From the NCBI RefSeq assembly GCF_000026545.1, contig NC_011601.1: 64,000 nt of DNA; one strand, written 5' to 3'. Position numbers and translations under genes: made by a program. The notes beneath the pieces were generated by a model. The model saw only the letters and a program-made list of their open reading frames with translations. It was not told where the DNA came from and ran no database searches. Origin of the DNA: Escherichia coli O127:H6 str. E2348/69. Its GTDB lineage: Bacteria > Pseudomonadota > Gammaproteobacteria > Enterobacterales > Enterobacteriaceae. Below, one piece after another: positions 12,870 through 53,070 of this stretch. Position 1 is the first letter of the stretch, and each line of letters begins with the position of its first letter.

Positions 12870-13327
12870 AGGAATATCTCCAGAAATAGGGATAACGCTA
12901 CTGATAGTTAGTCATTCGTATATTAGCGGTTTTTATTGCAACTTTGAAACGTTAAAAATGGTGGGTATTCGATTTTTCTCTCGTTTTTGTCAATTCGATT
13001 GTCCACAGTTATGGTCACGCCCGTCACCAACGGCTTCCGGGATCGTTTCACAGTAAGCCCGGCGATGAAATGTGACAAAAATTGACTTTATTCAGCAAAA
13101 ATGAAAATCAGCCCGCTGAATATGTAACATTAATTAACCCGAACAATACGGGCAAAAAACATTCATGATAAAAATATTTATTGGTCATTATATTAACGTA
13201 TTTTATAGTACTGTTGATATCACGCTCAAAAAACAACCACTGCTATTTTTAGCAAAGCTTATGGTATACTCCGCCGCCTTAACATTTTTCACCGCAAATT
13301 TTCATTGCAACATGACGAGGAAAATAA

Positions 13328-13552
13328 ATGAGTACGCCTGATTTTTCTACTGCCGAGAATAATCAAGAACTGGCAAATGAAGTCTCCTGCCTGAAAGCGA
13401 TGCTGACGCTGATGCTGCAGGCGATGGGACAAGCTGACGCGGGCCGCGTGATGTTAAAGATGGAAAAACAGCTTGCGCTGATCGAAGACGAAACCCAGGC
13501 TGCAGTATTTTCCAAAACGGTTAAGCAAATTAAACAAGCCTACCGTCAGTAA
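13328..13552 (+). CDS. yecF: DUF2594 protein YecF (74 aa)
   Basis: Track [29 protein letters not shown]... Confidence 0.85.
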
Positions 13553-13619
13553 TATAAAACCGGCTGAGAGCGTGCCTTTCAGCCGGTTTTTGCATCTGGC
13601 ACGCAGAACAGAAAAGAGA

Positions 13620-14342
13620 TCAAATTAAGCCAGTAGCGGCCGCGTAACAAGCAACCTGCGTCTTATTCGGTGCATTGATTTTTTTCTGCATGTTTTTCTG
13701 ATGGAAATTGACCGTATTCTCAGAGATTGACAAAATCATCGCTATCTCTGCTGATGTCTTACCTTCCGCCGTCCATTTCAGAATTTCTTTTTCGCGCTTG
13801 CTGAAATTCATCTCTGACGTCATCACTATTTCATCATTTAAACGCATCAGAGCCATCAGACTTTCGCGCACCAGTAGCTGCATTTTTAATTGCAGTTCAT
13901 CACTAAGAATGGGTATTTCGCGCGTGCTGCAACGGGAAAAGGACAAAAAGCCCAACGCCCGATTTGGCAGCATTAAATACTGAGTGACACCGCGGCGTAA
14001 ACCATGTGCGCGCGCAGCTTCCCATAACGGCTGTGCTTCGCTGAATAAGTCATCATTCCACATTAAATGGCCCTGACTAAAGTTTTCAGGGTTCAGCACC
14101 GGATCAATTGCGAGAAAATTTTTTGCCTGATAATAACTAACCCACGACTCAGGGTAATTGGTGTAGAAAGCCACTTTAGGTCGCGTGAATGGTACCGGGT
14201 GGCGAACACATAACGAATAGTAATCGTACTCCAGCTGCTGAGCCTGAAGCTCTATTTCATGGTAGACCTCTTCTGCGGCCTCCATCCTCTGAAAACGCAA
14301 CAACATCGTGCGAAGCCAGCTGAAAAAATCCGTATCCTGCAT
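13620..14342 (-). CDS. sdiA: LuxR-family quorum-sensing regulator SdiA (240 aa)
   Basis: Track ORF trimmed to MQDTDFFSW...; C-terminal HTH ...TSAEIAMILSISENTVNFHQKNMQKK. Confidence 0.95.
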   Translation of the reverse strand: MQDTDFFSWLRTMLLRFQRMEAAEEVYHEIELQAQQLEYDYYSLCVRHPVPFTRPKVAFYTNYPESWVSYYQAKNFLAIDPVLNPENFSQGHLMWNDDLFSEAQPLWEAARAHGLRRGVTQYLMLPNRALGFLSFSRCSTREIPILSDELQLKMQLLVRESLMALMRLNDEIVMTSEMNFSKREKEILKWTAEGKTSAEIAMILSISENTVNFHQKNMQKKINAPNKTQVACYAAATGLI

Positions 14343-14399
14343 AGTAAACCGCAACGCCCCTGAGAGTGAGTATCATTTATAATGATAATTCAAACTATC

Positions 14400-14568
14400 A
14401 CATAAATAAGATTTATATATAATTTATATTATTCAAGCAATGAATTACTTTTGCAAGCCATCGCATTCTCTTATGTTATTAATGAGTTATGCTGATTTGT
14501 TAAGCAGTTTTATCACGTTTGAAATGGCGTCCCGCCCCGACTGGTGAATCGTCGGGGCTGATTTTTTC
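14400..14568 (+). ncRNA. sdsN: Candidate SdsN-type sRNA in the sdiA-tcyN intergenic region; 5' end not determined
   Basis: Plus-strand intrinsic terminator (ccccgactggtgaatcgtcgggg + T-run, 14535-14568) in a region with no plus-strand ORF; sigmaS-dependent sRNAs are reported adjacent to sdiA. Placement is from memory. Confidence 0.3.
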
Positions 14569-14571
14569 TTA

Positions 14572-15324
14572 TTATTGCAGCAGAAACTTCTCCAGGAACT
14601 GGCGGGTGCGAGGCTGCTGAGGATCAGCAAATAACGCTTTTGCTACCCCCTGCTCGACTATCCGCCCCTGGTCCATAAAAATCGCCCGGTCCGCAACATC
14701 CCGGGCAAAGCTCATTTCGTGCGTCACAATCACCATCGTGCGCTTTTCCTGCGCCAGCTGACGAATGGTGTTCAGGACTTCGCCCACCAGCTCTGGATCC
14801 AGCGCCGACGTTGGCTCATCAAACAAAATCACTTCAGGACGCATTGCCAGAGCACGCGCAATCGCAACGCGCTGCTGTTGACCGCCAGACAAACGACGTG
14901 GATAACTGGTTTCTTTACCGGCCAGCCCAACTTTCGCCAGCAGCTCGCGAGCGCGCGCCGTGGCCTCTTCTTTCGGTTCGCCTTTGACGATCACCGGCCC
15001 TTCAATAATGTTTTCCAGCACCGTACGATGCGGAAACAGATTAAAGTTCTGGAAGACAAACCCGACGTGCTGACGCAACTGGCGAATCAGCGATTTTTGC
15101 TGACTTAATGAACGTGCAGTATCAATAGTGATATCGCCAACGGTGATGGTTCCCGCTTCCGGTTGTTCCAGCAGATTTATGCTGCGTAGCAACGTGGTTT
15201 TGCCGGAACCACTCGGACCGATAATTGCCACTACTTCGCCAGGCTTCACCTCAAGGTCGATACCATGCAGCACCGTCTGACCGTGGAATTTTTTCACCAG
15301 GTTCTTAACTTCAATGGCACTCAT
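14572..15324 (-). CDS. tcyN: Cystine ABC transporter ATP-binding protein TcyN/YecC (250 aa)
   Basis: Track ORF with Walker A GPSGSGKTT and signature LSGGQQQRV. Confidence 0.9.
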   Translation of the reverse strand: MSAIEVKNLVKKFHGQTVLHGIDLEVKPGEVVAIIGPSGSGKTTLLRSINLLEQPEAGTITVGDITIDTARSLSQQKSLIRQLRQHVGFVFQNFNLFPHRTVLENIIEGPVIVKGEPKEEATARARELLAKVGLAGKETSYPRRLSGGQQQRVAIARALAMRPEVILFDEPTSALDPELVGEVLNTIRQLAQEKRTMVIVTHEMSFARDVADRAIFMDQGRIVEQGVAKALFADPQQPRTRQFLEKFLLQ

Positions 15325-15989
15325 TTGTGTTCCCTCTCCTGGCGATTAAGTTGATTCTCAAAATGGTTCTGCAACGTCGATAACACAGTCGCCATAATCC
15401 AGTAGATGAGCGAAGCCGCCAGGTACATGGTGAACACCTCCAGCGTGCGCGAGGTAATCAACTGCGCCTGACGGAACAGCTCCGGCACCTGGATTGTCGC
15501 GGCCAGCGACGTATCTTTTACCAGGCTGATAAAGCTGTTCGACAGCGGCGGCAACGCCACCCGCGCCGCCTGTGGCAAAATCGCGCGACGCATGGTCTGC
15601 CATGGCGTCATGCCAATACTGGCTGCAGCTTCCCACTGACCTTTATCAATAGAAGAAATGGCGGCGCGCAGCGTTTCGGCAGCATAGGCGGCAGTGTTCA
15701 GCGACAGACCAATCATTGCTGACGGAATGGGATCTAATTCGATACCAAACTGTGGCAGTCCGTAATAGATCATAAACAGTTGTGCGATGAGCGGCGTACC
15801 ACGAAAAATAGAGATATAAAAACGCGCCAGCCAGCGCACGGGCCAGATTGGCGACAGGCGCATCAGCGCGAGAATAAACCCGAGCAGTAAGCCAAAAAAC
15901 ATGCCGCCGATACTGAGTTGCAGCGTATACCCAGCCCCTTTCAGCAGGAACGGCAAGGAATCAATAACCAGTTGTATACTTTCTTGCAT
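15321..15989 (-). CDS. tcyL: Cystine ABC transporter permease TcyL/YecS (222 aa)
   Basis: Track ORF MQESIQLVIDSLPFLLKGAGYTLQLS...; polar amino-acid permease. Confidence 0.9.
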   Translation of the reverse strand: MQESIQLVIDSLPFLLKGAGYTLQLSIGGMFFGLLLGFILALMRLSPIWPVRWLARFYISIFRGTPLIAQLFMIYYGLPQFGIELDPIPSAMIGLSLNTAAYAAETLRAAISSIDKGQWEAAASIGMTPWQTMRRAILPQAARVALPPLSNSFISLVKDTSLAATIQVPELFRQAQLITSRTLEVFTMYLAASLIYWIMATVLSTLQNHFENQLNRQEREHK

Positions 15990-16003
15990 GAGCGTTCCCG
16001 GAG

Positions 16004-19424: not shown

Positions 19425-19619
<195 letters not shown>

Positions 19620-41670: not shown

Positions 41671-41757
41671 AAATCCCGACCCTGAGGGGGTCGGGATGAA
41701 ACTTGCTTAAGCAAGAAGCACTTAAAAAATTCGTTACACCAGGAAATCTGATGTGTT
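41671..41757 (-). ncRNA. dsrA: DsrA small regulatory RNA (87 nt)
   Basis: Reverse complement reads AACACATCAGATTTCCTGGTGTAACGAATTTTTTAAGTGCTTCTTGCTTAAGCAAGTTTCATCCCGACCCCCTCAGGGTCGGGATTT, matching DsrA as recalled, including its terminator hairpin. Confidence 0.9.
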
Positions 41758-49945: not shown

Positions 49946-50092
49946 GACTCAATCATTTTTTGAACAAATAGATAAATTTTGCGCAACGGCGGTGAATACA
50001 GGAAAACTCGATTTGAACGATTTTATTTATCTTTGATTTCGGCTTTATTAATTCATTCAATCAATATATTGGTACTGATTACAATTATACCT

Positions 50093-50182
50093 TTTTATTT
50101 TTCTGTGTCATCATGCCTCCGTTATTAGCCTTTTATCGTCTTGTTTATATTTTTTTTGGCCGGCATGATGCCGGCTTTTTTT
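50093..50182 (+). ncRNA. rseX: Candidate RseX sRNA (boundaries approximate)
   Basis: Intrinsic terminator ggccggcatgatgccggc + T7 at 50158-50182 in the yedR-yedS spacer; upstream CCUCC-containing stretch (catcatgcctcc). RseX is reported between yedR and yedS; placement from memory. Confidence 0.35.
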
Positions 50183-51593: not shown

Positions 51594-51633
51594 AGCCTGA
51601 GTTCGTCCCTCATCGAACTCAGGCTTTTTTATT
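51594..51633 (+). terminator. Rho-independent terminator of yedS
   Basis: cctgagttcg…cgaactcagg stem followed by ctttttt. Confidence 0.7.
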
Positions 51634-53031: not shown

Positions 53032-53070
53032 CGCAGCCACGTTAATACTCACGACGTGGCTGCGTTTTTT
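53032..53070. terminator. Hairpin terminator between convergent hchA and hprS
   Basis: gcagccacg…cgtggctgc stem followed by gtttttt. Confidence 0.6.

Follow-up and report, generated by a model that had tools for sequence, protein, structure and literature searches.

SdsN has been described as an Hfq-dependent and RpoS-dependent small RNA that accumulates in stationary phase and represses narP translation, with control of narP abolished in the pairing mutant SdsN137-1; the source of this account cites as its ref. 12 the primary description by Hao, Updegrove, Livingston & Storz, Nucleic Acids Res 2016 (passages on SdsN in PMC9262595). Two of its forms, SdsN137 and SdsN178, are reported to arise from two RpoS-dependent promoters and to end at one common terminator, and NfsA is reported to be repressed (passages on SdsN in PMC5736990). 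Three isoforms and three confirmed targets, narP, nfsA and hmpA, are given elsewhere, where SdsN levels are also said to respond to nitrogen source in a NarP-dependent manner and where a direct action of RpoS is described as unproven or unclear (SdsN passages of PMC8139620). The sigma-S dependence, the Hfq dependence and the targets of SdsN are taken here as reported in this literature.

SdsN shares its general character with SdsR, GadY and SraL, which, in the parts of PMC5137417 and PMC5736990 that deal with them, are likewise stationary-phase, sigma-S-dependent, Hfq-binding sRNAs, roughly 100-180 nt long, whose 3' end is an intrinsic terminator with a U tail and whose action is through base pairing. 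No sequence relationship of SdsN to SdsR, GadY or SraL was seen. Furthermore, SdsR is a core enterobacterial sRNA, whereas the body and plus-strand terminator of SdsN were found in Escherichia only among 78 species representatives. The second sRNA repressor of narP, RprA, is encoded at another locus by an unrelated gene, and its control lies with the Rcs phosphorelay and not with RpoS.

The sdiA-tcyN spacer and the sdsN gene

The window, a 64-kb stretch that matches the chromosome of E. coli O127:H6 str. E2348/69 at 100% identity, contains the spacer between sdiA and tcyN, in which a preliminary description had pointed to a plus-strand intrinsic terminator and had proposed SdsN as its source. 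The features of the locus are as follows.

13620-14342, minus strand: sdiA coding sequence, given as context, divergent from sdsN
14343-14571: sdiA-tcyN spacer, between two minus-strand genes
14378-14383, plus strand: TATAAT, -10 box for a putative SdsN178 start at 14390, 6 nt upstream of it
14390-14430, plus strand: putative 5' extension found only in the longer SdsN178, from 178 nt counted back from 14567
14418-14423, plus strand: TATAAT, -10 box for the SdsN137 start at 14431, 7 nt upstream of it
14428-14456, minus strand: sigma-70-like promoter match and candidate sdiA promoter (TTGCAA, 17-nt spacer, AATAAT), from a consensus scan
14431-14567, plus strand: SdsN137, the annotated 137-nt form, by homology to b4719
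14432-14439, plus strand: 5'-end motif UUCAAGCA (UUCAGGCA in K-12), predicted by RNAduplex as the pairing site for the narP start codon; includes the single-nucleotide difference at 14436
14534-14558, plus strand: terminator hairpin with an 8-bp stem, 7 G-C pairs and a 9-nt loop, from RNAfold
14559-14567, plus strand: UGA spacer and U6 tail (six U at 14562-14567), the sRNA 3' end, by direct reading of the sequence
14572-15324, minus strand: tcyN coding sequence, convergent with sdsN and given as context; the stop codon lies 4 nt beyond the 3' end of the sRNA

The K-12 MG1655 RefSeq record (NC_000913.3) carries the entry 'ncRNA sdsN, b4719, small regulatory RNA SdsN' at 1996921-1997057 on the plus strand, 137 nt long and located between sdiA and tcyN. 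Pairwise alignment places b4719 at 14431-14567 of the window, gap-free and with 132 of 137 positions identical, its 3' end coinciding with the last U of the T run that had drawn attention to the spacer; over the whole spacers, identity to K-12 is 97.9%, again with no gaps. The comparison with the published SdsN that had been suggested as a check, run here against K-12 b4719, thus bears out the proposal of an SdsN gene adjoining sdiA. To the accompanying caution that the 5' end cannot be set from sequence alone, it can be added that homology sets it at 14431 for the 137-nt form. The five substitutions fall at 14436, 14516, 14518, 14533 and 14542, corresponding to nt 6 (A here, G in K-12), 86, 88, 103 and 112, the last of which sits in the terminator loop. 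Position, strand, terminator and 3' end are hence alike in the window and in K-12 sdsN (SdsN137/SdsN178/SdsN124), the differences being these five substitutions and the annotation, present as b4719 in K-12 and missing for the E2348/69 gene. At a threshold of at least 90% identity, the sdsN region occurs in 5375 of 5426 complete E. coli genomes. We regard it as nearly certain that the spacer encodes sdsN, the known trans-acting, Hfq-dependent sRNA gene of Escherichia, with SdsN178 and SdsN137 among its forms. By homology, the plus-strand terminator of the spacer is the 3' end of SdsN, a stationary-phase sRNA that has already been described, and is not a new one.

Automatic annotation gives no indication of this gene. 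The E2348/69 RefSeq record, annotated with PGAP, has no feature in the sdiA-tcyN spacer, and no Rfam family (Rfam 15) matches the spacer, either in a search of 13000-16000 at E <= 1 or in one of the whole window at gathering thresholds. The empty Rfam result says nothing against an sRNA, because Rfam is without an SdsN model. With sdsN unmarked by both resources, an automatic procedure can reach it only through homology to the K-12 record.

The terminator itself reads as had been claimed, with ccccgactggtgaatcgtcgggg at 14535-14557 followed by ctgattttttc at 14558-14568, and both flanking genes lie on the minus strand as stated. RNAfold adds an outer G-C pair to the stem originally quoted, giving arms GCCCCGAC (14534-14541) and GUCGGGGC (14551-14558), followed by UGAUUUUUU, with a hairpin centroid energy of -16.7 kcal/mol. 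A terminator followed by six U fits Hfq-binding sRNAs in general. A generic terminator scan returned a different and weaker stem at 14541-14555, because it accepts loops of 3-8 nt only and its range thus stops short of the 9-nt loop. A strict scan, which accepted only stems of 7 bp or more that included 5 or more G-C pairs, with loops of 3-10 nt and a T6 run no more than 4 nt away, found 7 sites on both strands of the 64-kb window, against 0.23 +/- 0.42 in block-wise dinucleotide shuffles, and two of the other six sites are the terminators of DsrA and RseX. The sdsN hairpin and its T6 run are therefore real and well above chance (7 vs 0.23). Folding energies of the whole molecule are unremarkable, with z of about -1.2 to -1.7.

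The strict scan marked four more strong hairpins with a T6 run, at 19429-19445 (minus), 51595-51624 (plus), 53032-53064 (plus) and 58685-58708 (plus). Rfam identified DsrA at 41671-41757 (minus, 102.5 bits) and RseX at 50092-50182 (plus, 89.4 bits), both known Hfq-binding sRNAs. The window further contains a tRNA-Leu(taa)/Cys(gca)/Gly(gcc) cluster at 9326-9627 (minus), tRNA-Ser(cga) at 59005-59094 (minus) and tRNA-Asn(gtt) at 60086-60161 (plus). Just downstream of tRNA-Asn, at 60400-61265 (plus), are two short ORFs, one of which has a Big_1 / invasin-D3 domain and resembles part of a large adhesin gene, and at 61521-62636 (minus) there is an ORF of 371 aa that weakly matches glycosyltransferase family 9 (heptosyltransferase). 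The region 60400-62636 by tRNA-Asn may represent a strain-specific insertion at a tRNA gene.

Conservation and the hairpin at the tcyN stop codon

A probe with SdiA returned 80 loci from species-representative genomes, from which 78 spacers could be extracted, the window and K-12 included; tcyN-sdiA synteny holds throughout the fetched loci. The Escherichia set comprises seven sequences, namely the window, K-12 and five further representatives (L003-L007), E. whittamii and E. albertii among them. Within this set, spacer identity to the window drops to 82.5%. The blocks that are conserved comprise 14395-14435, which is almost invariant, a nearly invariant body at 14443-14500, and the hairpin with its T run, which is kept as a run of T5-T6 in all seven representatives. 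RNAalifold independently recovered the terminator helix from the seven sequences, in which 91% of helix cells are paired; sliding the partners by 1-3 columns lowers this share to no more than 54%. Two stem pairs show compensatory changes, from A-U to G-C and from C-G to U-A, and covariation among these seven sequences thus appears to lend the helix modest support.

Beyond the genus, the Escherichia spacer profile matches the other 71 spacers only over positions ~10-110, equivalent to 14352-14452 of the window, and none of these 71 non-Escherichia spacers has five or more consecutive T on the plus strand within its final 60 nt. As judged from the spacer alignments, Escherichia alone has the sRNA body and the plus-strand terminator in this sample of 78 species representatives.

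A distance of 13 nt separates the tcyN stop codon from the hairpin downstream of it, and it is quite possible that the hairpin mainly or also ends the convergent minus-strand transcript of tcyN (tcyJ-dcyD-tcyLN), with its plus-strand activity a by-product or one half of a bidirectional function. Folded as the minus strand, the hairpin reaches -19 kcal/mol (z = -3.7), a hairpin lies at the equivalent position by the tcyN stop in most other Enterobacteriaceae genera, and the scan found a T-rich tail on the tcyN strand in about 32 of the 71 non-Escherichia spacers. Since many hairpins of other genera carry a T-rich tail on the tcyN strand, ending tcyN was probably the ancestral role of the hairpin at this position. 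Against this account as it applies to Escherichia, the minus strand after the hairpin reads CGGGACGCCAUUUCAAA, without a U tract, the scan found no minus-strand terminator in any of the seven Escherichia spacers, and the T6 run, which is conserved, belongs to the plus strand alone. A canonical bidirectional terminator was also considered and rejected, with U6 on the plus strand but CGGGACGCCAUUUC, again lacking a U tract, following the hairpin on the minus strand. Termination of tcyN and production of SdsN can in any case coexist, and the former is plausible as an additional function of the hairpin. The tcyN-stop hairpins outside Escherichia (loci L008-L082) differ in sequence by genus, and their polarity is opposite to that in Escherichia. 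Together with the reading of the spacer as sdsN, these patterns would fit a recent origin of the sRNA, either beside the terminator hairpin of the convergent gene or out of that hairpin.

Promoters, isoforms and the sdiA boundary

A TATAAT box stands 6-7 nt upstream of each of the two SdsN 5' ends, so that the presence of boxes agrees with the reported pair of promoters, the use of which is predicted. Both boxes are the same in K-12 and in the window. The SdsN137 box at 14418-14423 is invariant in the seven Escherichia representatives, and the SdsN178 box occurs among them as TATAAT, CATAAT, TATACT, TATAGT and TATATT, with T, A and the final T kept. From the transcript length and this box, we infer that the 5' end of SdsN178 lies at 14390. 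On inspection of the sequence, both promoters lack a good -35 hexamer as well as the -13 C that is characteristic of sigma-S promoters; the sigma-S dependence of sdsN therefore rests on the literature.

In the resulting model, plus-strand transcription in stationary phase would start at ~14390 and at 14431, from promoters reported to be sigma-S-dependent, and both transcripts would stop at the single intrinsic terminator (14534-14558 plus U6 to 14567), yielding SdsN178 and SdsN137. SdsN137, together with Hfq, would pair with the translation initiation regions of nfsA, hmpA and narP and bring about their repression. SdsN would hence place both nitrate/nitrite signalling and the handling of nitro and nitroso compounds in connection with the general stress response.

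On the opposite strand, a promoter-like match with its -35 element TTGCAA at 14456-14451 and its -10 element AATAAT at 14433-14428 lies across the SdsN137 start, and the stretch of spacer shared with other genera, which extends to about 14452, coincides with this site. The part of the spacer that is conserved across genera is thus probably the sdiA promoter and leader. The SdsN137 start falls within the minus-strand -10 element, and the -10 box of SdsN137 just inside the predicted sdiA leader; because of this overlap and the interdigitation of the boxes, the sdiA and SdsN137 promoters may exclude each other. This arrangement raises the alternative that the transcripts act in cis on sdiA, instead of or besides acting in trans, either through promoter occlusion or through the SdsN178 5' extension as an antisense RNA to the sdiA 5' UTR. 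An sdiA start near 14421 would make 14390-14421 of SdsN178 antisense to the sdiA leader, and the near invariance of the block 14395-14435 in the genus would suit such a role. We nevertheless consider a cis effect improbable, as 3 kb gave 6 sites in the promoter scan where 4.2 were expected, which makes a single match weak evidence, and as the targets of SdsN given in the relevant passages of PMC9262595 and PMC8139620 are in trans only.

The preliminary description had also held that the spacer has no plus-strand ORF, which proved inexact, since an ATG ORF of 35 codons runs from 14440 to 14547 and a TTG ORF of 33 codons from 14519 to 14620. A role of the transcript as a dual-function RNA, or as a small mRNA encoding the 35-residue protein (MNYFCKPSHS...), is very improbable. 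The ORF does lie wholly within SdsN137, and E2348/69, K-12 and two more of the Escherichia representatives have it intact, but no Shine-Dalgarno sequence precedes it, its start is ATT in L005, its codon 8 is a stop in L006 and in L007 (E. albertii), and its C-terminal half changes freely, with indels. With no Shine-Dalgarno sequence and with the frame broken in 3 of the 7 Escherichia representatives, coding status for the 35-codon ORF was rejected.

Target pairing and the substitution at nt 6

Duplexes computed with RNAduplex between nt 1-100 of the sRNA and 100-nt target regions were long and loop-ridden, with shuffled sRNAs performing at least as well in a fraction of 0.07-0.74, and local pairing was recomputed with 24-nt windows in place of the full-length duplexes. 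Under these conditions, positions +2 to +10 of nfsA are predicted to pair with nt 94-102 (-12.8 kcal/mol), and hmp with nt 62-82 (-13.1 kcal/mol) or, alternatively, with nt 2-11 (-10.9 kcal/mol). For narP, positions +2 to +9 (UGCCUGAA) are predicted to form 8 contiguous base pairs with nt 2-9 (UUCAGGCA) in the K-12 allele only. We infer from these models which SdsN nucleotides would pair with which target.

The substitution at nt 6 falls within the predicted narP site. When nt 1-14 are paired with narP -12 to +18, RNAduplex predicts -12.8 kcal/mol for the K-12 allele and -6.2 kcal/mol for the window allele, the latter being weaker because of an A.C mismatch at nt 6. For hmp, the predicted pairing with the 5' end is essentially the same for both alleles (-10.6 and -10.9 kcal/mol), and the change from G to A makes the predicted hmpA pairing perfect. 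On the target side, the narP leader and the first 14 coding nucleotides are the same in E2348/69 and K-12. Codon 5 of narP (position 515 of L084) is ACA in K-12, a minority synonymous allele, and ACG in E2348/69 and CRE10; the K-12 narP 38-mer is matched exactly by only 355 of ~5400 genomes.

The exact 60-mer 14425-14484 was found in 3 of 4638 matching complete E. coli genomes, all three of them assemblies of the E2348/69 lineage, and the other genomes that match the 60-mer all differ from it at one position. Furthermore, nt 6 is G in every other Escherichia representative. In the genomes compared, the A at nt 6 (14436) is private to the E2348/69 lineage, a small new point.

In the primary description, the 178-nt form is reportedly inactive owing to unusual Hfq binding, and the cleaved 124-nt form is said to repress nfsA and hmpA; a 124-nt form that reportedly represses only these two targets would fit the 5' end as the narP seed. 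If the 5' end is indeed the narP seed, this EPEC lineage might have partly uncoupled NarP synthesis from sigma-S/SdsN control while keeping the repression of hmpA and nfsA, a scenario that the pairing models allow and that we hold to be rather unlikely.

The sdsN gene is known, yet it is easily missed by automatic annotation, a matter of little consequence beyond annotation itself. The lineage-private substitution in the predicted narP seed offers a simple testable case of natural variation in the target set of an sRNA and, if the scenario of partial uncoupling is true, would provide a natural example of the rewiring of such a set by a single nucleotide.
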